From: a virus | Lineage: Duplodnaviria > Caudoviricetes | IMG/VR virus record: IMGVR_UViG_3300031992_000038 | Location: 32,001 to 96,000 of that record | Length of the DNA stretch: 64,000 bases | Direction: 5' to 3' (one strand) | Shown: positions 8,670-24,843 of the stretch, in pieces | Position numbering within the stretch: position 1 is the stretch's first letter | Layout of the letters: every line of letters begins with the position of its first letter | Notes under the pieces: model-generated | Databases searched by the model: none | What the model was told of the DNA's origin: nothing | The model's input: only the letters and a program-made list of their open reading frames with translations | Made by a program: the position numbers and the translations under genes

Positions 8670-11111
8670 ATGACTAAAATCTCCAAATTCCACGAGCTAA
8701 TCAAGAACGCCCACATCGAGAAGGACGTCGAGAGCGTATACACCCAGGGCATCACCATGTATTTCCCTGAGGCTGATATTGAACACCCGTTCGCGTGCGA
8801 CAGTTTCATCGACACGAAGACTGACAACGGCAAGATGCTCAAGCTCATCATCGAGTACAAGTTCGATGAGGACTTCTCGACCCGAACCGCACGCTCAAAG
8901 GTCATCGCACAGGTGCTTTATTACATGAAGCGCTTCGAGCAGAACGGCATGATTCTTCCCAACGTTGTCATGGTCGGCGACGTGAACGAGTGCTTCGTGT
9001 TCCACAGCAACGACATCATCAAATACCTCGACGAGGACATCGACTGGACAATCGCCCCGTCAGAGGCCCATCACCGCAACCCAGACCTTGTCATGAAGCT
9101 GAACGACGACGAGAACGTCAACCCGTTCATATTCCGCATTGACGAGCATTTCTCGTTCAAGAGCGTTGTAGAGCGCATCAAACAACTCGCCGACAACATC
9201 CAGCGGTACGTGCACGTGACCGAGCACAACATCGCCACCATATTCGAGTACTTCTGCGACAGGGTAATCAAGGACCGCAAGAAGATTCAGGCGAACGACC
9301 TCGTCGCCGTGTTCATGGGAGTGATAACGAAGGGGGAGAACTACTACAAGCACCCTAACAAGAAGAACACGCTCGTCACGCCGTTCGGGAACATCAGCAT
9401 CAACTCGGACGGGTACGACTCGTTCTTCTCGTACTTCAACCGCAACTACACGCCGCAGGAGAAGAACCGATTCGCCGAGATTTCGGACCGACTGATTGAG
9501 GATACGAACCGCAGAAACAAAGGGGAGTTCTACACTCCGACCTTGTTCGTGGACTATGCCCATAAGATGATTGCCGAGCAGTTCGGAGAGGACTGGAAGG
9601 AGAAGTACGTGGTGTGGGACAATAGCGCAGGAAGCAAGAATCTCACCCGTGACTACTACTTCAAGGAACTGTATTCGTCAACGCTCGAACAGGCCGAACT
9701 TGACATCTCATCACAATATAATAAGGAGGCGACGTCATTCCAGTTCGACTTCCTCAACGACCCGTTGGAGAAACTTCCGCAGGGGCTGAAGGACGCGCTT
9801 GAACAGGACAAGCCCATCATCTTCTTCATGAATCCGCCTTATGCTACAGCAGCAAGTGGAAAGGGAAAAGATGGGAAAACAAACGTTTCAAATACAATTG
9901 TTTATGATACAATGATTGATGATTGTGGAAGGTGCAGCCAGAATCTTTATGCACAGTTCATCTACCGTATCATGATGATTAAGCGTAAATATAATTTGAC
10001 AGACTGTCACATAGCTATGTTCACCAAAACCTTGCATTTGACAGGTAGTAGTTGGAAGAAATTTAGGGATGAATTCTTCAAAGATTTCAATTATATCAAT
10101 GGATGCATGTTCAATGCTTCTCACTTTGCTGACTGTTCTGATAAATGGGGCATTTCATTTGCTATATGGAAATCAAATATGCCAAACAGCATTGATAATT
10201 TCACACATATTCTAATTGATAGCAAAGACGGTGAAATTGTTAATGTTGGCGAAAAAACATTATACAATATGGACAGCCAACAATCCGCAAGCGATTGGGT
10301 AAGAGAGGGGATAAAGGGGATTGAAAAAGAATTAAGACCACACCTTTCAAGCGCAATAACGATTTCGGAGAAACAAAATCAAACGCTAGCGAAAAATGCG
10401 TTAGGAAGTCTAATGTCGTTATCAAATAATGTATATGAAAACGCACAAGGCGTTGGTTTGTCTTCAACAATTCAAACAAAAGGCAGCGCATGCATTTCAA
10501 TATCTATTCTTCCGACGAATTTCACCCGTTGCACCTCTCTGTTCGCGGCCCGCAAGTTAGTAGTCGGTAACTGGATTAACGACAAGGACGAGTACATGGC
10601 ACCGAACACGGAGCACGAGAAGTGGCAGGAGTTCGAGAGTGACAGTGTTGTCTATTCGCTGTTCAACACCTCTTCCAATCAGTCTTCTCTCCGCAATGTG
10701 GAGTACAAGGGCAAGTCATGGGACATCAAGAACGAATTTTTCTGGATGTCCAAGGACGTGATGATGGCATTGGCCGAGGAGTTCTCCAACGACTACTGCT
10801 ACAACGACGCCCGCGTGTCAGACGAGCGATATGTGTACAAACTCCTTCAGGGAATGGAGTTGAGCAAGGAGGCGCGTGACGTCCTGCTGAAGGCAACGCA
10901 GATTGTCGCCAAGTCGTTCCCTTACCGACAGATGTTCAACGAGGAGCATCCAGAGTATCAGGTAATTAACTGGGATTGCGGATGGTACCAGGTCAAGGCG
11001 ATTGCAAAGGAATACCTGAAGGATGACCTTGAGGAGTTCAAAGCGCTCTACAAGAAACTCTCGGAGAAGATGCTCCCGATGGTGTATGAACTAGGGTTCT
11101 TGAGAAAGTAA
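8670..11111 (+). CDS. fused restriction endonuclease-N6-adenine methyltransferase (type IIG-like)
   Basis: N-terminal D...IEYK...Q-x-x-Y nuclease motif; GEFYTP, WDNSAGSKNL (motif I), NPPY (motif IV); C-terminal specificity region. Confidence 0.8.
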   Translation: MTKISKFHELIKNAHIEKDVESVYTQGITMYFPEADIEHPFACDSFIDTKTDNGKMLKLIIEYKFDEDFSTRTARSKVIAQVLYYMKRFEQNGMILPNVVMVGDVNECFVFHSNDIIKYLDEDIDWTIAPSEAHHRNPDLVMKLNDDENVNPFIFRIDEHFSFKSVVERIKQLADNIQRYVHVTEHNIATIFEYFCDRVIKDRKKIQANDLVAVFMGVITKGENYYKHPNKKNTLVTPFGNISINSDGYDSFFSYFNRNYTPQEKNRFAEISDRLIEDTNRRNKGEFYTPTLFVDYAHKMIAEQFGEDWKEKYVVWDNSAGSKNLTRDYYFKELYSSTLEQAELDISSQYNKEATSFQFDFLNDPLEKLPQGLKDALEQDKPIIFFMNPPYATAASGKGKDGKTNVSNTIVYDTMIDDCGRCSQNLYAQFIYRIMMIKRKYNLTDCHIAMFTKTLHLTGSSWKKFRDEFFKDFNYINGCMFNASHFADCSDKWGISFAIWKSNMPNSIDNFTHILIDSKDGEIVNVGEKTLYNMDSQQSASDWVREGIKGIEKELRPHLSSAITISEKQNQTLAKNALGSLMSLSNNVYENAQGVGLSSTIQTKGSACISISILPTNFTRCTSLFAARKLVVGNWINDKDEYMAPNTEHEKWQEFESDSVVYSLFNTSSNQSSLRNVEYKGKSWDIKNEFFWMSKDVMMALAEEFSNDYCYNDARVSDERYVYKLLQGMELSKEARDVLLKATQIVAKSFPYRQMFNEEHPEYQVINWDCGWYQVKAIAKEYLKDDLEEFKALYKKLSEKMLPMVYELGFLRK

Positions 11112-11141: not shown

Positions 11142-11600
11142 ATGGAAATAAAGTTCAAGACGAAAGATGAGATAGAAAGCATTGCTCTTCACGAGTTGAG
11201 AAAGTCGCCAAACAAGAAACTGCTCAGCAACACGAACGTGGACTGTTTCATAAGCGGGTGGAATGCCGCGTCGAACGACATCAGGTCACAGATGACCGCG
11301 GAGAAACTGAAAGAGTTCAGGGAGTATCTGAAGGAACTGTCGGAGTACTGCGACGAGAGAATGAGACGTCAGAACGAAGACCTCGGTTACAGCGGTTATA
11401 TGTACACGGTTCCCAGCGACGCGCAGTTGATATTTGAACTGTGGAAACGTGTCGGTGAAGCCTGTGAGACGATAAGCGCGAACCTCGAGAACGTCAAAAT
11501 GAGCCGCGGCGAGTATTACGACAAGGTGAAAGGATGCGGGGATGAATCCACTACACCTTTGCTATGCCGGATTCATGGGAGACAGATGAAAGCATTTTAA
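11142..11600 (+). CDS. hypothetical protein
   Basis: 152-aa ORF. Confidence 0.65.
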   Translation: MEIKFKTKDEIESIALHELRKSPNKKLLSNTNVDCFISGWNAASNDIRSQMTAEKLKEFREYLKELSEYCDERMRRQNEDLGYSGYMYTVPSDAQLIFELWKRVGEACETISANLENVKMSRGEYYDKVKGCGDESTTPLLCRIHGRQMKAF

Positions 11601-11680
11601 CCATTTTTAACGAAATAAAATTGTTCATCTCAGAAACTTTGTGTACCTTCCACAATCAGAAAACAAAATGTTTTGTCATT

Positions 11681-12139
11681 ATGGACAGATTCAAAGCAAT
11701 ACAGGACGAGATTATCAGCAAGTACCGCGTGAACATTGACGCCAATTCCACGTGCCGGACACGGACGCATGCCCACGTGAGGGAGCGCAGGGTGTGCAAA
11801 TGGGTGCGGAAGAACAGTTTCGAGAGCACGTTCACGCTCCTTCATGAGGTTGGTCACATAGAGACGAAAAAGTCCTCGATGCGCCGTTCCGAGAGCGAGT
11901 ATTATGCGACGTGTTGGGCGTTGGATAGATGCCGCGAATACGGTCTGCAGGTGCCGGAGAAGACCCTCCACGTGTATCAGCGGTACATCCTTCAGGAAGT
12001 CGCGAGAGGCAAACGCAGGGGCGGGTGCGGATACGGAGAGTTGAACATTTACAAGTATTACGGCATTGACAAGACAATCAAGCAGTTCGTAGGCGAGCTG
12101 GAACCGGCGTGGGCGAGATGCATAGCGCCGTGGATTTAG
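11681..12139 (+). CDS. putative zinc metallopeptidase (HExxH)
   Basis: LLHEVGH followed by ESEYYA; upstream promoter-like TTG-N-TACCTTCC supports the 11681 start. Confidence 0.7.
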   Translation: MDRFKAIQDEIISKYRVNIDANSTCRTRTHAHVRERRVCKWVRKNSFESTFTLLHEVGHIETKKSSMRRSESEYYATCWALDRCREYGLQVPEKTLHVYQRYILQEVARGKRRGGCGYGELNIYKYYGIDKTIKQFVGELEPAWARCIAPWI

Positions 12140-12203
12140 CTGTTAAGTTTTTGGATTGAGGTTTCTTTCGGGTTATATTCTTATTTAAGACTAAATAAAG
12201 ATT

Positions 12204-15200
12204 ATGAAAAAATTTGCAAACCTCCAGAAGGAGGTAAAGACTGTCAAATTTGGGCTTAAGCCAATTGGAATGACAGAAAAGTTCATCAAGGATAGAGGTC
12301 TCCTTGACGCGCAGTATTCAATCAACGACAGACTGGAAGAGGCGAAACTGGTCCTTGACCGTGTATATCTCGATGTCCTCAGCCGAAGTATGTCGTCCAT
12401 TGACCCGAAAATCGCTGACGGGTTGTATGACGTGTGGCTGAAAGACCAGAAAAAGTTCACTAACAGCAATGAGTTCAATTCCGCTAAAGATACATTTGTT
12501 GGCAAAATTAAAGGATATATTAGAGAACTAATTAAAACCGAGAAAGAAAATTATGACTTTAATGTCAATAATATCCTAAACGATATAGACACCTTCTGCG
12601 GTGGGGATGATGTCTTAAAGAGCGAACTACACAGCATTAAGAATGACTTTAGCGGACGTTCAGCTTATTTCACGGAATATTGCACCAGCAAAAACCCTGC
12701 ATTGTTCGGAACCGAAACAAATTCTTCCTCATATCGTGTCTTTAATGAGAACCTTGTGACATTCTTCAAGAATGTGAAAGCGTTCCGCTCAATCAGTCCT
12801 GATCAAATGACGACGGTTCTTAAATTTGTTGATGGTCTCGATGAAATCATGGTACCGGATAATGGTTTGAAGTATATTCTGCAATCAGACATTGACGTGT
12901 ATAATAAGGTGATTGCTGAATACGCTTCTGCGCGACAGGAACTCCAAAGCAAGGACAAGGGGTTGAGCCTTCCGAAACTTGAGAAACTCGCGAAGCAGAT
13001 TCTTTCTGAGGCCGAGAAGAAATTCCAGCCAATCGAGAGTGACGAGGAGGTGTTTTCGTTCCTGGACGAGAACATCGAAGACCTTACGTCCGCAATATTG
13101 AAACTGAAAGAGTTGTTCAGTGGGATTGGTTCGATTTATGACAAGGAGAAAATCCTGATTGCAAAGAAGGTGAAGGCTAAAAAGGATGAATTCTCCATGA
13201 TTTCGAACGCCTGCATGCATAGTTGGGACGGAATAAAGAACCTAATCATAGAGAACTGGAAGGCTGAAAATCCTAAGGGTAAGGAAAACGTAAAGGACAA
13301 GAAAGCAAACAAATTCTACAAGCAGTTAAGCAATATTTCATTGCTTGAACTTGAAAAAATCACGAACAGTGATGCGGCAACATCTTATCTGATCGGACTA
13401 GGCGAGAAGAACGACAGAGAACTTCAGGAGGCTGACCTTGCTTCACTCGCCATAAACGCTTACAACGTGTTCAAGGAAGAACACGAGAAGGGTCTTGACA
13501 AGAGACTCAAGAACATTGATAACTCAAAGAACATAAACGCATTCTTTGACACGCTGATTAGACTGAAGGACTTCATCTCCCAGATATATGTCGGAGAGGG
13601 CATAGATGACACCTGCGAGTTCTATCAGGAACTTCTTCCTGCGAAATGCAAACTCGAGGAGGTTGTCAGTGAGTGGGTAAGAATCCGAAGTTACCTCACC
13701 AAGAAGGACTACATTCAGAACGAACTGCGTGTCTATTTCGGATTGAACGCGAATTTGATGGGTGGGTGGACACACAAAGAGAATGGTGAGTTTCCAAAAC
13801 GTTCAATTATGTTCAAGGGTGTCGGGGACGATTATTATGTCGGAATTCTTGCTGGGGTTTCCAGTGCCAAAAAGATTTTAAATGGAGAAATAGGTGACGG
13901 AAGATTCCGATATCTTGACATAACAAATTATGACAAAAAGAATATCGAAAGACTTGTTCAAACTTTTTGTGGTGGCAAGAAACCAGATGAAGATGGCCTT
14001 ATTAAAGTCCTCACAAGCAAAGAATGGGCACAAAAGTACCCAAAGTTAGTTTTGGAGAAAACCGATGGGTTCAGCAGTACAGACGAAATCTATAAATCAC
14101 TTTGCCATCAAGAAATGAGATGGGTTGCATGTTCACGCGAAGCCGTAGACACGATGGTTGAGAGTGGTGATTTGTATCTCTTCAAACTTTCTTGTCGGGA
14201 TTTCAGCAAGCATTCAAAAGGTAATCCACAACTGTACACTATGTACCTGCGTGCGCTGTTAAGTGACGACAATCCGATTGGAAGATATTTCATCAATGGT
14301 AACGGAAAAATCACTTTCAGACCGAGGACAGTTGTCGACAATACAAATATTGGTGATTTCGCCATCCACAGGGCAAATTTCCCCATTGATAACAAGCGGA
14401 ACATTGAAGGCGGTGAGAAAAGTGCCACGTATCCATATGACATTGAGAAGAACAAGCGTTTCAAGTCGGATTCATGGTTCATCAGTTTACCGTTATCCGT
14501 GAACGAAGGCAAGAAAATCACCCAAAAGGAAATCAATGACCTTGTCAACGGCATGATTTCAACCGGTGAGATTAAGCACGTCATCGGTATTGACCGCGGC
14601 GAAAGGAACCTTGTCACCGTATCTATCGTGAACAAGGACACAATGGAAATCGTTGAGCAAAGAAGTCTGAACATCATCGGCAACACAGACTATAACAAAC
14701 TCATGGATGAGATGAGCGAGAACGTTAAGGATGATAGGAACAATTTGCGATTGGAAAGTTCGATGAGAAACATGTCCGAAGGTTATGTCAGCCATGCCGT
14801 GAATGAAATAGTACAACTTGTCAGGAAATACAATGCAGTAATCGCGATGGAAAACCTGGACAATCTTGGGCGCGGTAAAATCATCAAGAACATCTACACG
14901 AAGTTCGAGAACCAGTTATTGGACAAACTGTCGTTCATGGTGTTCAAGGATGTTGACAAGAACGACATTGGTGGCGTATACAATCCGCTCACGATGGCAA
15001 TAAAGAAGACGGACCAAACTAAATATGAAAAAACGTTGTCGCAGAACGGTATTGTTTTTTCGGTATTGCCTCAATACACATCAAGCATCGACCCTGTAAC
15101 TGGTTTTGCGAATGTGCTTGACATGCAGAATGTGAAGACTATTGACTCGATCAAGAAGTTCTTCTACTCATTCGACTATATACGCTATGACAAGGAACAT

Positions 15201-15824
15201 GACCATTTCGTGTTTGGCGCCGACTGGAAGAAATTCAAACTAAAGAACAGTGTAAAGGTGAATGAATTGAACAGGACCGAATGGACACTTGTGTCAAGTG
15301 GAATAAGGATCAGGTACAAAAAGACAAAGAACAGTTCGCACCGAACCATTGAGGAGCATGACCCTACTGAGGAACTCAAGAGAGCCATCGGAAGGTCTGG
15401 AAACAATTTCATGGAATGCGGAAACATCAAGAACATAATCATGAACCAGGACTCACATGACATCCTTGACGAATTCCTTGATGCGGTAAAACTGATTCTG
15501 CAGATGAGAAACAGCAAAGGGGAAGAGGACTACATCCTGTCACCGGCGCTAGACGAAAACGGAAAGCAGTTTGACTCACGTGAGCGTCATGGACAAACAA
15601 TGCCGAAAGACGGTGATACGAATGGCGCTTACAATATCGCAAGACGGGCCGTTATGCTCATCAGGAATGGTGATGACAATAAATATGACAGCAATGTGCA
15701 CTGGTTGAATTTTGCGCAAACCGAAGGAAGAATGCAAACCTTAGGTAATGTGCAAAGTACAAATTTTGACAACGAGTTCAAAACTAATGAGTTATGTTAT
15801 TCCGCATCGAAAAGGGTGGGGTAA
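12204..15824 (+). CDS. cas12a: type V-A CRISPR effector Cas12a (Cpf1), divergent
   Basis: N-terminus KTVKFGLKPIG; RuvC-I IGIDRGERNL, RuvC-II IAMENL, RuvC-III PKDGDTNGAYNIARR; YTSSIDPVTGF, ILQMRNS, DYILSP; directly upstream of a Cas12a-type array. Confidence 0.93.
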   Translation: MKKFANLQKEVKTVKFGLKPIGMTEKFIKDRGLLDAQYSINDRLEEAKLVLDRVYLDVLSRSMSSIDPKIADGLYDVWLKDQKKFTNSNEFNSAKDTFVGKIKGYIRELIKTEKENYDFNVNNILNDIDTFCGGDDVLKSELHSIKNDFSGRSAYFTEYCTSKNPALFGTETNSSSYRVFNENLVTFFKNVKAFRSISPDQMTTVLKFVDGLDEIMVPDNGLKYILQSDIDVYNKVIAEYASARQELQSKDKGLSLPKLEKLAKQILSEAEKKFQPIESDEEVFSFLDENIEDLTSAILKLKELFSGIGSIYDKEKILIAKKVKAKKDEFSMISNACMHSWDGIKNLIIENWKAENPKGKENVKDKKANKFYKQLSNISLLELEKITNSDAATSYLIGLGEKNDRELQEADLASLAINAYNVFKEEHEKGLDKRLKNIDNSKNINAFFDTLIRLKDFISQIYVGEGIDDTCEFYQELLPAKCKLEEVVSEWVRIRSYLTKKDYIQNELRVYFGLNANLMGGWTHKENGEFPKRSIMFKGVGDDYYVGILAGVSSAKKILNGEIGDGRFRYLDITNYDKKNIERLVQTFCGGKKPDEDGLIKVLTSKEWAQKYPKLVLEKTDGFSSTDEIYKSLCHQEMRWVACSREAVDTMVESGDLYLFKLSCRDFSKHSKGNPQLYTMYLRALLSDDNPIGRYFINGNGKITFRPRTVVDNTNIGDFAIHRANFPIDNKRNIEGGEKSATYPYDIEKNKRFKSDSWFISLPLSVNEGKKITQKEINDLVNGMISTGEIKHVIGIDRGERNLVTVSIVNKDTMEIVEQRSLNIIGNTDYNKLMDEMSENVKDDRNNLRLESSMRNMSEGYVSHAVNEIVQLVRKYNAVIAMENLDNLGRGKIIKNIYTKFENQLLDKLSFMVFKDVDKNDIGGVYNPLTMAIKKTDQTKYEKTLSQNGIVFSVLPQYTSSIDPVTGFANVLDMQNVKTIDSIKKFFYSFDYIRYDKEHDHFVFGADWKKFKLKNSVKVNELNRTEWTLVSSGIRIRYKKTKNSSHRTIEEHDPTEELKRAIGRSGNNFMECGNIKNIIMNQDSHDILDEFLDAVKLILQMRNSKGEEDYILSPALDENGKQFDSRERHGQTMPKDGDTNGAYNIARRAVMLIRNGDDNKYDSNVHWLNFAQTEGRMQTLGNVQSTNFDNEFKTNELCYSASKRVG

Positions 15825-15895
15825 ACAACTAAAAAGAAGAAAAGACCAAAGCCGCTCATTTCCAATGGGTTGGATTAAAAACTTGGGCGGATAGG
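15825..15895 (+). promoter_or_regulatory. short CRISPR leader
   Basis: Lies between the cas12a stop and repeat 1; degenerate repeats are at the opposite end; TCCAA-TGGG-TTGGA hairpin. Confidence 0.55.
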
Positions 15896-16597
15896 GTCTA
15901 TCAAAGATAAGAAATACCTACTTGTGTAGGTTTTTATGGACACAATGTCCGACTCTGCGGTCTATCAAAGATAAGAAATACCTACTTGTGTAGGTGGAGT
16001 GGTGCAGACAGATGTCCGATAAAGTCTATCAAAGATAAGAAATACCTACTTGTGTAGGTTATATAAAACCATGAAAAAATGAAGTAGTCTATCAAAGATA
16101 AGAAATACCTACTTGTGTAGGTCTTGATTGAGACGATGTCCGACTCTGCGGTCTATCAAAGATAAGAAATACCTACTTGTGTAGGTTAATCAGTTGGGCG
16201 GAGAAATTAAGCGCGTCTATCAAAGATAAGAAATACCTACTTGTGTAGGTGACATCTCACTTCCATGCTCCTTCAAAGTCTATCAAAGATAAGAAATACC
16301 TACTTGTGTAGGTCGGTTGTCAAACTTGATTCCTGTCTTCGTCTATCAAAGATAAAAAATACCTACTTGTGTAGGTTAAGGAGGGCTTACAGGCTATTGG
16401 GATGGTCTATCAAAGATAAGAAATACCTACTTGTGTAGGTAGGTTATTAGTTATTTTCAGCGTTTTCGTCTATTAAACATAAGAAATATCTACTTGTGTA
16501 GGTATTGGGACTTGACAAACTTACAATTCTTCGTCTATTAAAAATAAGAAATACTTACTTGTGTAGGTACAATTGGACACCAAGTCTATTAAAGATA
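15896..16597 (+). CRISPR. CRISPR array: 11 full 36-nt repeats plus a truncated 12th; 11 spacers
   Basis: Repeat GTCTATCAAAGATAAGAAATACCTACTTGTGTAGGT at 15896, 15960, 16024, 16087, 16151, 16215, 16278, 16341, 16405, 16468, 16533 (last two degenerate), partial at 16584; spacers 27-29 nt, last one 15 nt. Confidence 0.98.
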
Positions 16598-20879: not shown

Positions 20880-22745
20880 ATGAGCAAACAAGAAGAATAT
20901 CTGAAGTGTTACCAAGACAAGACACGGATATACTTTATAGAACACTACCTGTCCACATACAACGCTGACGACAGGAAGGAGACCCCGTTCATTCTATTCC
21001 CGAGGCAGAAGGAGTTCCTCCGCAGTCTCGCCACCAACCAGAACACGATAGCAATCAAGCACAGGCAGGCCGGAATCACGACAGTGTCAAGCGCCTGGAT
21101 AACCGGACAGTGCGTGTTCGCGAACAAGAAGTCGCCGGAGACAGTGCTGTGCATAGGGAACAGTCTTGACATATCACAGCAGCTGCTTGACAAAATGGGC
21201 ACGTTCATCGACCAAGTCCCGAGGTGGATGTGGGGCGGCGACTATTACTCGCCGGACCCGAACAGCCCGAAGAACTCCAAGTCCATATTCAAGACGAGGA
21301 ACCAGAAGATGATAGAACTCGTCAACGGATGCAAACTGTACGCACGCTCGTCAGGACCGCACGCCGCGCGAGGAATCTCGGCCGTGTCAATACTGATATT
21401 CGACGAGGCGGCGTTCATACAGGACGGTCCTGCGGTCTATGCCCAGGCCGTCGCAGCGCAGTCGTCAGTCGGCGAATCGTCTAGATGCATCATGGTGTCG
21501 ACACCAAACGGCAAGGACCAATTGTACTACAAGACATACGCCAATGCGATCAGCGGCGAGAACAACTACCATCCAGTCGAGTTCAAGTGGTTCCAGGACC
21601 CGAGGTACAACCGCAACCTCAAATGGTACAAGCTAGACAGTTCGACCGGCGAGATGAAGTGGGACATCGACCAAGTGGTGAACCGCCGCGGCGACATCGT
21701 CTATGATGAGGAAAGATGGCGCTCGCTTGAGCGGGACGGATGGACTCCGACTTCTCCGTGGTTTGAGGGGATGTGCAAGACACTCAACAATGACGAAATG
21801 CGCATAGCGCAGGAGCTGCTCGTGTCATTCCTCGGTTCTTCGGACAACGTTCTCCAACCTGAAGTGATTGACTTCCACCGCACGGCAAACGTCGTCGACA
21901 TCACAGACGACTGGCCGCTGCGAGATCCCCTTATAAAGGAGACGTGGATATGGAAAGACCCGGTTCCGTCGCACCGATACATCGTGGCGTGCGACGCGTC
22001 GACCGGTTCGTCCGAGGACCGCACGGCGATAGAAGTGATAGACATAGACGCCAAAGACGACCGCGGCGTTCCTTATTTCGACCAAGTGCTCGAATACTAC
22101 GGGAAAATGACGGGCGACGAGATAGGGGAGATGCTGTACAATTACGGGAGGGCGTACAATGACGCGCTGATCATCGTCGACTGCATCGGAGGGTACGGTG
22201 ACGCCGCGATACTCACGCTCATGAACCTCGGTTACACGAACCTGTACTACGACGAGCCGCAACTGAAGACATATGTGGCAATGAACCAATACTCTCCGTC
22301 CGCGCAGTCAGACACGCTCCCCGGTTTCAGGTCGAACAACCTGCGCATACAGATGCTGAGCAATTTCGTCACACTTCTCAAGACCAACGCGCTCAGAATA
22401 CGCAGCCGCCGCGTGATCACCGAACTCGAGACATGGGTGTGGAAGAACGGGCGTCCGGACCATATGGACGGCGCGCATGACGACAGCATAACGTGCCTGG
22501 CAATGGGCGGCTTCATCATACAGTTCTACCTCATGAAGAACGAGGAGAGCAAAAGACGCGACGCCGCAATCGTGAAGTCGTGGTGCGTCAACAACTCATA
22601 CGAGCGGCGCGAGACGCAGGCCAGCAACGGAACGGCGAACAATCACCCGATGCCGATATATTCGTCGCGCAGCATGGAGATGGACCGCCAGCGGAGGCTG
22701 CAGGCGATGCTCATGATAGGCGGATTCGGCAGGAAAAAGCGTTGA
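20880..22745 (+). CDS. terL: terminase large subunit (T4 gp17-like)
   Basis: KHRQAGITT (Walker A variant), ILIFDEAAF (Walker B), VSTPNG, IAQEL, YIVACD, HDDSI nuclease motif; adjacent to portal. Confidence 0.93.
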   Translation: MSKQEEYLKCYQDKTRIYFIEHYLSTYNADDRKETPFILFPRQKEFLRSLATNQNTIAIKHRQAGITTVSSAWITGQCVFANKKSPETVLCIGNSLDISQQLLDKMGTFIDQVPRWMWGGDYYSPDPNSPKNSKSIFKTRNQKMIELVNGCKLYARSSGPHAARGISAVSILIFDEAAFIQDGPAVYAQAVAAQSSVGESSRCIMVSTPNGKDQLYYKTYANAISGENNYHPVEFKWFQDPRYNRNLKWYKLDSSTGEMKWDIDQVVNRRGDIVYDEERWRSLERDGWTPTSPWFEGMCKTLNNDEMRIAQELLVSFLGSSDNVLQPEVIDFHRTANVVDITDDWPLRDPLIKETWIWKDPVPSHRYIVACDASTGSSEDRTAIEVIDIDAKDDRGVPYFDQVLEYYGKMTGDEIGEMLYNYGRAYNDALIIVDCIGGYGDAAILTLMNLGYTNLYYDEPQLKTYVAMNQYSPSAQSDTLPGFRSNNLRIQMLSNFVTLLKTNALRIRSRRVITELETWVWKNGRPDHMDGAHDDSITCLAMGGFIIQFYLMKNEESKRRDAAIVKSWCVNNSYERRETQASNGTANNHPMPIYSSRSMEMDRQRRLQAMLMIGGFGRKKR

Positions 22746-22791: not shown

Positions 22792-24843
22792 ATGGCAAAA
22801 CCGACAATTTTTCAAAGACTGACCAACATATTCTCGGACTCCCCCAAGACATCGAAGACTGTCAACAGGTACGGCATCGACGCCAACGACATACTGTTCA
22901 GGACGACCGACAAGGACGAGTTCGACTCAAAGAAACTTGAGTACAGACAGCAGAACTTGCTGGCGAGACAGTGGAGGCGCGCCCAGTACGACGTGGCCAA
23001 CAGACAAGTGGCCGGGCTGAACGAGGTGAAACTCATGTACCGCGACGCCGACCTTATGGACACATTCCCCGAGATCGGGGCGGCGCTTGACATCGTGTCG
23101 GAAGAGGCGTGCACGATAAAGAACAGCGGATACATGGTGAACGTGACCTCGAAGTCCGACCGCGTGGCGTCCATACTGAGGGACCTGCTCGTCAACAGGC
23201 TGTCAATACACACGACACTTCCGATGGTGTGCCGCAGCATGTGCAAGTACGGCAACACATACATGCTCCTCAACACGGACATGGACAACGGCGTGATGGG
23301 ATGGAAACAGTTGCCGGTCTATGAGATGGAAAGGTACGAGAACGGCATGCTCAACGCATACGCATCACCCGGAATAAGCATGTCGGCGATAAACCCTGAC
23401 AAGTCAACGTCGACCAAGTTCGTGTGGGTCGGGAACAACGAGTTCATCGCCTACCAGAACTGGCAGGTCGCCCACTTCAGGCTTCTGTACGACTCGCTGT
23501 ACCTACCGTACGGCATGTCATATCTCGCAAAGGCGAGGAGGCATTTCCGCATGCTGTCAATGATGGAGGACATGATGCTCATATACCGCCTCGAGAGGTC
23601 GGTCGAGAGAAGGGTGTTCAAGATAAACGTCGGAACTATCGACGACGCGGACGTTCCGGCATACGTGCAGCAGATAGCGGACAACTTCAAGAGGACACCG
23701 GTGATCGACCCTATGACCGGTCAGATTGACCTGCGAAAGGGCGTCATGTCGCAGATGGACGACTATTTCATCCCTGTCAGGGACCCGAACGAGCCGAACC
23801 CGATCGAGACACTGGCGGCGGCGCAGAACATGAACGCGATGGACGACATCAAGTTCGTTCAGAACAAAGTCATGACAGCGCTCCGAGTGCCAAAGTCGTT
23901 CCTGAACTTCGAGGAGGAGAAGGGTGACGGAAAAAACCTGTCGATGCTTGACGTGAGGTTCACGAGGACAGTGAACAGAATACAGCAGGCGCTTCTCATG
24001 GAACTCAACAAGATATGCATCATACACCTGTACCTGCTCGGTTTCGTCGACGACCTCACGAACTTCACACTCACTATGAACAACCCGTCCTCACAGGCCG
24101 AGATGCTTGAATTCGAGAACCTCGCCAAGAAGATAACCACGGCAAAGGACGCCGTGTCGGACGCTGGAAACGGAATACCGGTCTACTCGCTCGCAAGGGC
24201 GTGGAGGGAAATTCTCGGATGGTCAGACAAGGAAATCGAGGAGAACCTCGACAACCTGCGCCTCGAGAAAGCGCTCGCGGCGGAACTCGAGAACACGAGC
24301 GACATCATCAAGAGGACAAGGATATTCGACAAGATAGACAACGTGTACGGCGAACCCGGCGCAGAATACGGACAGTCGTCCGGCGGACAGGGTGACGAAG
24401 GTCCCGGCGGCGGAGGCCCCGGCGGAGGAGGATTCGGCGGCGGCATGGGTTCGTTCGATTTCGCTGACGAAGAAGGCGACATGTCAGGCATGGGAGAAGA
24501 AGGCGACATGGGAATGGACATGGCGGCCGGCGAGGATATCGGCGGAGAAGGCGGCGAAGAGACGAATGGCGGGCCTGAGGCCGCTCCACCGCAAGAGTCG
24601 ATATCGCGCATGATGGACCGGGCGCTCAAACAGTCGCTCAACGAGCAGGAACGCATCAAGAACGAACTGATTGAGAAGAGCCGACGGTACACACAGATGC
24701 TCAAGGAACGAAAGAGCGGAACGCGCATGACCAACGAACCGTCGACAAGCGAACCAACATTGTCGGACAAGACATTCCTCGTCAACGAGGAACTGAACGC
24801 CGTGTCGCAGGAACTCAAGAAGATAATCAACCCCACCAAGTAG
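22792..24843 (+). CDS. portal protein (T4 gp20-like)
   Basis: MMEDMMLIYRLERSVERRVFKINVG, DDYFIPVRD, ALRVPKSFL; long Gly/acidic C-terminal tail. Confidence 0.92.
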   Translation: MAKPTIFQRLTNIFSDSPKTSKTVNRYGIDANDILFRTTDKDEFDSKKLEYRQQNLLARQWRRAQYDVANRQVAGLNEVKLMYRDADLMDTFPEIGAALDIVSEEACTIKNSGYMVNVTSKSDRVASILRDLLVNRLSIHTTLPMVCRSMCKYGNTYMLLNTDMDNGVMGWKQLPVYEMERYENGMLNAYASPGISMSAINPDKSTSTKFVWVGNNEFIAYQNWQVAHFRLLYDSLYLPYGMSYLAKARRHFRMLSMMEDMMLIYRLERSVERRVFKINVGTIDDADVPAYVQQIADNFKRTPVIDPMTGQIDLRKGVMSQMDDYFIPVRDPNEPNPIETLAAAQNMNAMDDIKFVQNKVMTALRVPKSFLNFEEEKGDGKNLSMLDVRFTRTVNRIQQALLMELNKICIIHLYLLGFVDDLTNFTLTMNNPSSQAEMLEFENLAKKITTAKDAVSDAGNGIPVYSLARAWREILGWSDKEIEENLDNLRLEKALAAELENTSDIIKRTRIFDKIDNVYGEPGAEYGQSSGGQGDEGPGGGGPGGGGFGGGMGSFDFADEEGDMSGMGEEGDMGMDMAAGEDIGGEGGEETNGGPEAAPPQESISRMMDRALKQSLNEQERIKNELIEKSRRYTQMLKERKSGTRMTNEPSTSEPTLSDKTFLVNEELNAVSQELKKIINPTK

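Follow-up and report, generated by a model that had tools for sequence, protein, structure and literature searches.

A deeply divergent Cas12a encoded with its own leader and CRISPR array in a gut phage, probably as an effector-only type V-A cassette

We analyzed a 64,000-nt stretch of phage DNA (the window) that corresponds to bases 32001–96000 of a 115,873-nt IMG/VR virus record (IMGVR_UViG_3300031992_000038) rated 32% complete by CheckV. The window encodes a Cas12a protein (P0001) followed on the same strand by a leader and a CRISPR array. We read residue conservation from two Cas12a alignments of 62 and 93 rows, and use PI for the region interacting with the protospacer-adjacent motif (PAM) and crRNA for CRISPR RNA. 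The gene, its functional elements and the adjoining array are arranged as follows.

12204–15824, + strand: cas12a gene encoding P0001 (1206 aa), identified with TIGR04330, PADLOC, Pfam and an AlphaFold2 (AF2) model searched with Foldseek
13767–14180, + strand: compact WED-II/PI/WED-III segment, residues 522–659, from its length against 93 Cas12a proteins and a fragment model
14367–14450, + strand: putative pre-crRNA processing residues H722 and K731 (HRANFPIDNK) and K749 (IEKNKRF), in conserved columns
14592–14594, + strand: RuvC-I aspartate D797 (IGIDRGERN)
14850–14897, + strand: RuvC-II glutamate E883 (MEN) and shortened lid (ENLDN^LGRGKIIKNIY), from alignment columns
15615–15617, + strand: RuvC-III aspartate D1138 (DGDTNGAYNIA)
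15723–15821, + strand: C-terminal extension, residues ~1174–1206; family-profile and PDB alignments end at 1172–1174
15825–15895, + strand: 71-nt leader between cas12a and the array, near-identical by eye in the related contigs L001, L002 and L003
15896–16568, + strand: CRISPR array of 11 repeats of 36 nt and 10 spacers of 27–29 nt

The open reading frame (ORF) at 12204–15824 is a genuine full-length Cas12a. P0001 scores 557.2 bits against the equivalog model TIGR04330 (curated cut-off 300) and 639 bits against the PADLOC Cas12a profile, matches the Pfam families RuvC_1 (PF18516), NUC (PF18510) and, weakly, REC1, and retrieves only Cas12a chains (ReChb, Lb2, Lb, Mb, Fn and As) in a sequence search of the PDB; the Pfam REC2 model PF21918 is unmatched by P0001 and matched by its homologue P0005. 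An AF2 model of residues 1–1200 computed from the 93-sequence alignment (mean predicted local distance difference test score (pLDDT) 82.9, predicted template modeling score 0.73) displays the bilobed REC/NUC fold of Cas12a with WED, REC1, REC2, PI, RuvC, BH and Nuc elements. Foldseek aligns this model over its full length to LbCas12a (E ~1e-60 to 1e-63, template modeling (TM) score 0.76–0.77), with the highest TM score (0.77) for binary-complex states of LbCas12a and crRNA. An initial annotation of this DNA, made from the sequence alone, had suggested structure prediction and Cas12a alignment as a check of its assignment, and the match to the LbCas12a fold bears that assignment out.

The catalytic and RNA-processing residues expected of Cas12a are present in P0001. 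The D/E/D triad of a single split RuvC domain (D797, E883 and D1138) and the arginine of the inserted Nuc domain (R1102) each occupy a column that is invariant in the 62-row alignment and at least 90% conserved in the 93-row alignment. Within the WED region, H722 and K749 are invariant in both alignments and K731 is invariant in the smaller and at least 90% conserved in the larger. The spacing of histidine and lysine (H+9=K) and the lysine of IEKNKRF fit the FnCas12a pattern H843/K852/K869, and the WED RNase residues (H/K/K) predicted to serve pre-crRNA self-processing are intact. Both motif sets singled out in the initial annotation, the RuvC acids in IGID, MEN and DGD and the processing-like residues in HRANFPIDNK and IEKNKRF, therefore fall entirely in conserved columns.

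We compared P0001 with the type V-A Cas12a/Cpf1 proteins LbCas12a, Lb2Cas12a, FnCas12a, AsCas12a and ReChb (PDB 5ID6, 5XUS, 8H9D, 5NG6, 5B43 and 8QWD). P0001 resembles solved Cas12a proteins in domain order, fold, RuvC triad, Nuc arginine and WED RNase residues, but is only ~22–27% identical to them and departs from them in a compact PI region without the LPK motif, a 3-aa lid deletion and a tail of ~27 aa predicted to be disordered. Its nearest relatives, P0002 and P0003, are proteins on two short metagenomic contigs (88% and 85% identical), all other matches among 5.8 billion clustered proteins are ~30% identical, and a HMMER scan of 1.84 billion cluster representatives adds a single sister, P0121, at 33–35% identity. 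In a quick, unrooted maximum-likelihood tree the three-member clade and P0121 together are fully supported on a long stem, with a path of ~2.3 substitutions per site to the next sequences, suggesting a deep branch of Cas12a; as the tree is unrooted, we claim no finer position. A tblastn search with P0001 returned zero matches in isolate phage genomes, and an IMG/VR search with this single protein found no close relatives. Six other Cas12a proteins from IMG/VR virus records (L046–L051, among them 251-kb and 441-kb records with terminal repeats) are 25–30% identical to P0001, and Cas1 was absent from all five of these records that were searched whole (four rated complete). The description of P0001 as a divergent phage Cas12a thus stands, with identities of at most ~33–35% outside its own clade and, in place of high identity to a characterized Cas12a with an intact PI domain, ~22–27% to the solved structures.

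Repeat decay orients the CRISPR array. Of repeats 1 to 9, all but the eighth, which has a single-base difference, share one sequence; repeats 10 and 11 are degenerate, and a partial repeat in decay lies beyond the array from ~16584. Since the degenerate repeats lie distally, the leader end is the one facing cas12a and the array is oriented for + strand transcription, with the same polarity as the gene. On this strand the repeat is of the crRNA type with a 3′ stem-loop handle, ending in ...AAAUACCUAC-UUGU-GUAGGU with a predicted 6-bp hairpin, ACCUAC-UUGU-GUAGGU. Whereas the usual Cas12a handle is UCUAC-N4-GUAGAU, the stem in the window (ACCUAC/GUAGGU) has closing pairs altered on both sides; the handle of the 85%-identical relative on L003 (CCUGC-UUUU-GCAGG) carries a further compensatory change, and P0121, the more distant sister, shows the canonical start AAUUUCUAC. 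The rare handle CCUGC[N4]GCAGG occurs in the metagenomic V-A families Cas12a-M11 and Cas12a-M61 (PMC7757703); it is exact in L003, whereas the window has the related CCUAC-N4-GUAGG. The PADLOC M11 and M61 profiles score P0001 at 506 and 191 bits, both below the 639 bits of the general Cas12a profile, and motif look-ups of clade-specific peptides and the repeat in the Metagenomi supplementary sequence files (PMC7757703) found nothing, so that these comparisons do not establish membership of either family.

Array content varies among relatives. In a sheep-gut assembly (L001 7979–8146 and sequencing run X1, joint 15894 to 16404), a cas12a gene nucleotide-identical to that of the window is followed by an array with only the window's two oldest spacers (2 versus 10), a difference that reflects either fast array turnover or repeat collapse in assembly. 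We discounted a reading of this difference as spacer gain, since 36-nt repeats may be collapsed in Logan contigs and X1 has no coverage of the spacer region. On L002 (4140–4260), which encodes the 88%-identical relative, decay has left of the array a single full repeat, a short spacer-like fragment and a truncated repeat.

Three of the ten spacers match other viral contigs.

15932–15959, + strand: spacer 1, targeting the serine integrase gene of a 25-kb phage contig with direct terminal repeats (G001), one mismatch, 5′ TTTC
16060–16086, + strand: spacer 3, targeting the start-codon region of the G001 major head gene, one mismatch, 5′ TTTA
16187–16214, + strand: spacer 5, targeting an ORF of unknown function on a 33.6-kb viral contig (G002), one mismatch, 5′ TTTA

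The four bases 5′ of these protospacers (TTTC, TTTA and TTTA) all conform to TTTV, and the 3′ flanks have nothing in common. TTTV occupies ~0.8% of positions in the target contigs, such that three of three would arise by chance with a probability of ~5e-7, and the natural PAM of this Cas12a, judged from these sites, appears to be canonical 5′-TTTV; a relaxed PAM that includes TTTV is possible and compatible with all three. The altered PAM proposed in the initial annotation accordingly finds no support in the natural protospacers. The 36-nt repeat with a 3′ hairpin handle, the 27–29-nt spacers and the 5′-TTTV PAM indicated by natural targets are all Cas12a-like.

The spacer 1 target was found by searching viral contigs with a codon-degenerate form of spacers 1 and 4; the merged exact spacer 1/4 pattern matched nothing in viral, genome or metagenome collections. 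Spacers 1 and 4 (spacer 4 at 16123–16150) represent a single coding site in a phage serine integrase and differ only synonymously (reverse frame AESDIVSIK), and among public contigs we found the spacer-1 allele and not the spacer-4 allele. In viral contigs nothing matched the first 23 nt of spacers 2, 6 or 7, and in metagenome contigs a degenerate spacer-2 pattern was likewise without a match; spacers 8–10 were not searched singly in the large viral, genome or metagenome collections. Searched as a whole, the array produced only chance matches to isolate phage genomes and only chance-level BLAST matches to 401 Bacteroidales genomes. No spacer matches its own phage contig at up to five mismatches; spacers 1 and 4 match each other.

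Genes for spacer acquisition are missing from the available sequence. Six-frame searches of the whole 115,873-nt record (~32% of the genome) with hidden Markov models for Cas1, Cas2 and Cas4 (PF01867, PF09827 and PF01930) gave no match and detected their positive controls, extending beyond the window the earlier observation that cas1, cas2 and cas4 are absent. The locus in this respect differs from canonical V-A loci (cas12a-cas4-cas1-cas2-array), which have adjacent adaptation genes, and resembles the integrase-less Cas12a loci termed 'subtype VIII' in being an effector-only V-A locus, a type that has been described before (PMC12375029). In CRISPR systems of huge phages, absence of Cas1, Cas2 and Cas4 is the rule and other phages are targeted (PMC7162821), so a missing adaptation module is not unusual here. 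New spacers would presumably be acquired with adaptation proteins encoded elsewhere, either by the host, as the initial annotation supposed, or by the two thirds of the phage genome that lie outside the record. A search of 185,579 species genomes for this repeat handle found no bacterial array, only 24 single chance matches.

Comparison with the two closest relatives delimits the shared unit. Homology to window positions 12195–15995 extends over L002 436–4179 and L003 920–4699, beginning only 2–9 nt before the cas12a ATG and stopping in the first repeats, and the flanks are unrelated. Because homology is confined to cas12a, the leader and the first repeats, gene, leader and array appear to move together, and on this evidence the unit behaves as a mobile cassette.

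The locus lies in a phage context, with a large terminase and a T4-type portal 5–7 kb downstream.

20880–22745: large terminase gene, downstream of cas12a
22792–24843: T4-type portal gene, downstream of cas12a

An identical protein is recorded on a 330,287-nt contig. Sequencing runs that contain the sequence come from sheep gut metagenomes and an unspecified gut metagenome, with small shares in bovine gut runs, and the cas12a allele is identical in assemblies of at least three studies. Two sheep-gut metatranscriptome libraries hold contigs 100% identical to several pieces of cas12a, giving only a hint of expression.

The initial annotation had also noted a shortened PAM-interacting region, a shortened lid and a C-terminal extension, each of which is confirmed by measurement. 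The segment from W522 to L659 spans 138 aa in P0001 compared with a median of 168 aa (range 136–269) across 93 Cas12a proteins, a shortening of the PI segment by ~28 aa relative to the usual length; the Pfam PI model PF22222 is unmatched by P0001 and matched by the typical homologue P0005, and neither the canonical LPK lysine motif nor the GWxxxK motif is conserved in this region. In a separate model of residues 500–700 (pLDDT 83.5), 186–193 of 201 residues align to solved PI regions (Z 11–13), superposing on Lb 514–741, Fn 591–827 and As 523–784, from which we conclude that the PI domain is compacted and not lost. Residues K580, K581 and R585 on the equivalent PI helix of the model are candidate PAM readers. 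A similarly short PI segment occurs in P0121 and in the unrelated pair P0173/P0268. We considered and rejected the idea that a compact PI accompanies phage carriage, since three other viral Cas12a proteins, those measurable among L046–L051, have PI segments of normal length (167–169 aa). The unrelated compact-PI protein P0173 is encoded at L053 8001–11675 amid genes for a DnaB helicase, DNA polymerase III alpha, an NAD ligase and a DHH protein; cas1, cas2 and cas4 were not found near this locus, and its setting resembles the replication module of a large phage.

The lid that follows RuvC-II (NLGRGKII) shows a change found in no other aligned Cas12a. From E883 to Y898 the lid comprises 16 residues in P0001, as opposed to 19 in 87 of the 93 Cas12a proteins, 18 in two and 20 in three. 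The column that holds phenylalanine in 89 of the 93 is gapped in P0001 alone, and P0002 and P0003 keep the full lid (NFK). In the DNA, nine nucleotides are cleanly missing, in frame, after codon N887, and the deletion allele also occurs, ungapped, in L001 and in contigs of DNA run X3 and RNA-library runs X4 and X5, which come from two further studies. The lost residues are the equivalents of FnCas12a G1011-F1012-K1013; in FnCas12a, F1012A alone nearly abolishes target-strand cleavage and K1013 contributes as well (PMC10874386). The initial annotation had offered altered trans-cleavage as an alternative to an altered PAM; by analogy with these FnCas12a mutants (PMC10874386), altered target-strand cleavage by P0001 is plausible, and the lid deletion is the one feature of the protein that could change how the enzyme works, be it in RNA-guided dsDNA cleavage or in collateral ssDNase activity. 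Downstream of the conserved W1167, P0001, P0002 and P0003 share a 40-aa end where most other Cas12a proteins have 6–14 aa and a few reach 24–32, and the ~27 extra residues are predicted to be disordered (pLDDT below 50 from residue 1179 in P0001).

We interpret the locus as an effector-only type V-A module of cas12a, leader and array that a huge phage from the guts of sheep and cattle carries as a discrete cassette, and assign this reading a probability of roughly 0.8. The interpretation draws on gene identity, fold and conserved residues, on the array and its polarity, and on the phage context, viral spacer matches and TTTV flanks; RNA processing, DNA cleavage and a competitive benefit are steps that we infer. 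In the proposed mechanism the phage would transcribe the array from the leader, Cas12a would cut its own pre-crRNA upstream of the repeat hairpin through H722, K731 and K749, and the crRNA-loaded enzyme would find 5′-TTTV-flanked protospacers in smaller phages, some of them temperate, that co-infect the cell or already reside in it. Cutting by the single RuvC site (D797/E883/D1138) would then eliminate phages that compete for the same host. The most likely function is ordinary Cas12a interference against such rivals. Several observations weigh against this interpretation: targets are identified for 3 of 10 spacers only, each with one mismatch, and that of spacer 3 is a seed mismatch; DNA carry-over could account for the RNA-library contigs; the ~two thirds of the phage genome not sampled could contain adaptation genes; and the lost lid residues include the F1012 and K1013 equivalents, so that full double-strand cutting is not assured.

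The lid deletion bears most directly on an enzyme impaired in cleavage, in which loss of the Phe and Lys would leave mostly non-target-strand nicking or binding and Cas12a would serve as a nickase or as a block to transcription or replication. Uniqueness of the 3-aa deletion among 93 proteins, loss of a near-invariant Phe, the FnCas12a F1012A and K1013 results (PMC10874386) and the full lid of P0002 and P0003 all lend weight to such an enzyme, but the RuvC triad is intact, and an allele that recurs unchanged in assemblies of at least three studies, next to the longest array in the clade, is consistent with active use of the system, though a nickase could be useful too; we regard impaired cleavage as unlikely, if a serious possibility. 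More doubtful is a joint scenario in which the lid-truncated enzyme without Phe-Lys serves its phage as a programmable nickase or blocker of rivals and the PI region without the LPK lysine provides escape from AcrVA5-type inhibition; AcrVA5-type acetyltransferases are carried by sheep-rumen Bacteroidota phages (PMC10799925). That the compact PI domain changes PAM specificity is improbable: the ~28-aa shortening, the unmatched PF22222 and the unconserved LPK and GWxxxK motifs would suit such a change, yet all three identified protospacers have 5′-TTTV and the PI fold superposes on solved Cas12a structures.

The targets themselves speak to whether the system is directed at the host, for example at its defenses or at immunity genes borne by prophages, and not at rival phages. 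The contig that holds two of the targets also encodes a serine integrase, so this target may persist in the host as a prophage, and phage spacers against hosts are known (PMC7162821), but the targets identified are genes for phage structure and integration, located on viral contigs, and the array matches 401 Bacteroidales genomes only at chance level, leaving host targeting very improbable. We give even less credence, indeed hardly any, to a decaying relic, a module acquired from a bacterium and out of use. The adaptation genes not found on the 115,873-nt record, the L002 array reduced to one repeat and a fragment, and the deletion of a key lid motif could be seen as signs of decay; they are countered by an open 1206-aa frame with all functional residues kept, purifying conservation within the clade at 85–88% identity, 8 of 11 repeats identical, spacers that differ from extant phages by no more than one mismatch, and coverage of the gene by RNA-library contigs.

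Ordinary interference against rival phages also agrees with what is known of CRISPR–Cas systems in huge phages (Al-Shayeb et al. 2020, PMC7162821), which the window resembles in its large phage setting, lack of Cas1, Cas2 and Cas4 and compact array, and in that its three matched spacers target other viral contigs. Unlike the systems listed there (types II, V-I, V-U, V-F and Cas-phi, with V-A unlisted), the window's effector is a full-size Cas12a; the huge-phage class is set at >200 kb, and the record here measures 116 kb at 32% completeness. CRISPR systems that phages carry without adaptation genes form a known class, to which the locus adds a new and deeply divergent member. Its lineage adds a deeply branching Cas12a with at most ~33–35% identity outside its own clade, and provides a natural example of a full-size type V-A effector in a giant gut phage that would be aimed at smaller phages. 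The apparent retention of a canonical TTTV PAM by a PI region ~28 residues shorter and without the usual lysine motifs could be useful for understanding as well as engineering PAM reading, and the lid deletion offers a natural test of a motif tied by recent work to target-strand cleavage. As an editing tool P0001 offers little obvious gain, and at best a modest one, being similar to existing enzymes in size (1206 aa versus 1228 aa for LbCas12a) and in PAM.

Apart from a weak PglZ match, the ORFs neighboring cas12a have no Pfam, PHROG or PADLOC family. This match, to PADLOC PglZ profiles (E ~5e-4, 16 bits), is in a 191-aa ORF (window 11564–12139, + strand) and is probably due to chance. Upstream of cas12a and separated from it by two small ORFs lies an 813-aa ORF (window 8670–11111, + strand) that is also present in L001; it matches nothing in Pfam, PHROG or PADLOC, and the ESM Atlas clusters closest to it consist of viral proteins labeled 'adenine-specific DNA methyltransferase family', which we take as a lead only.

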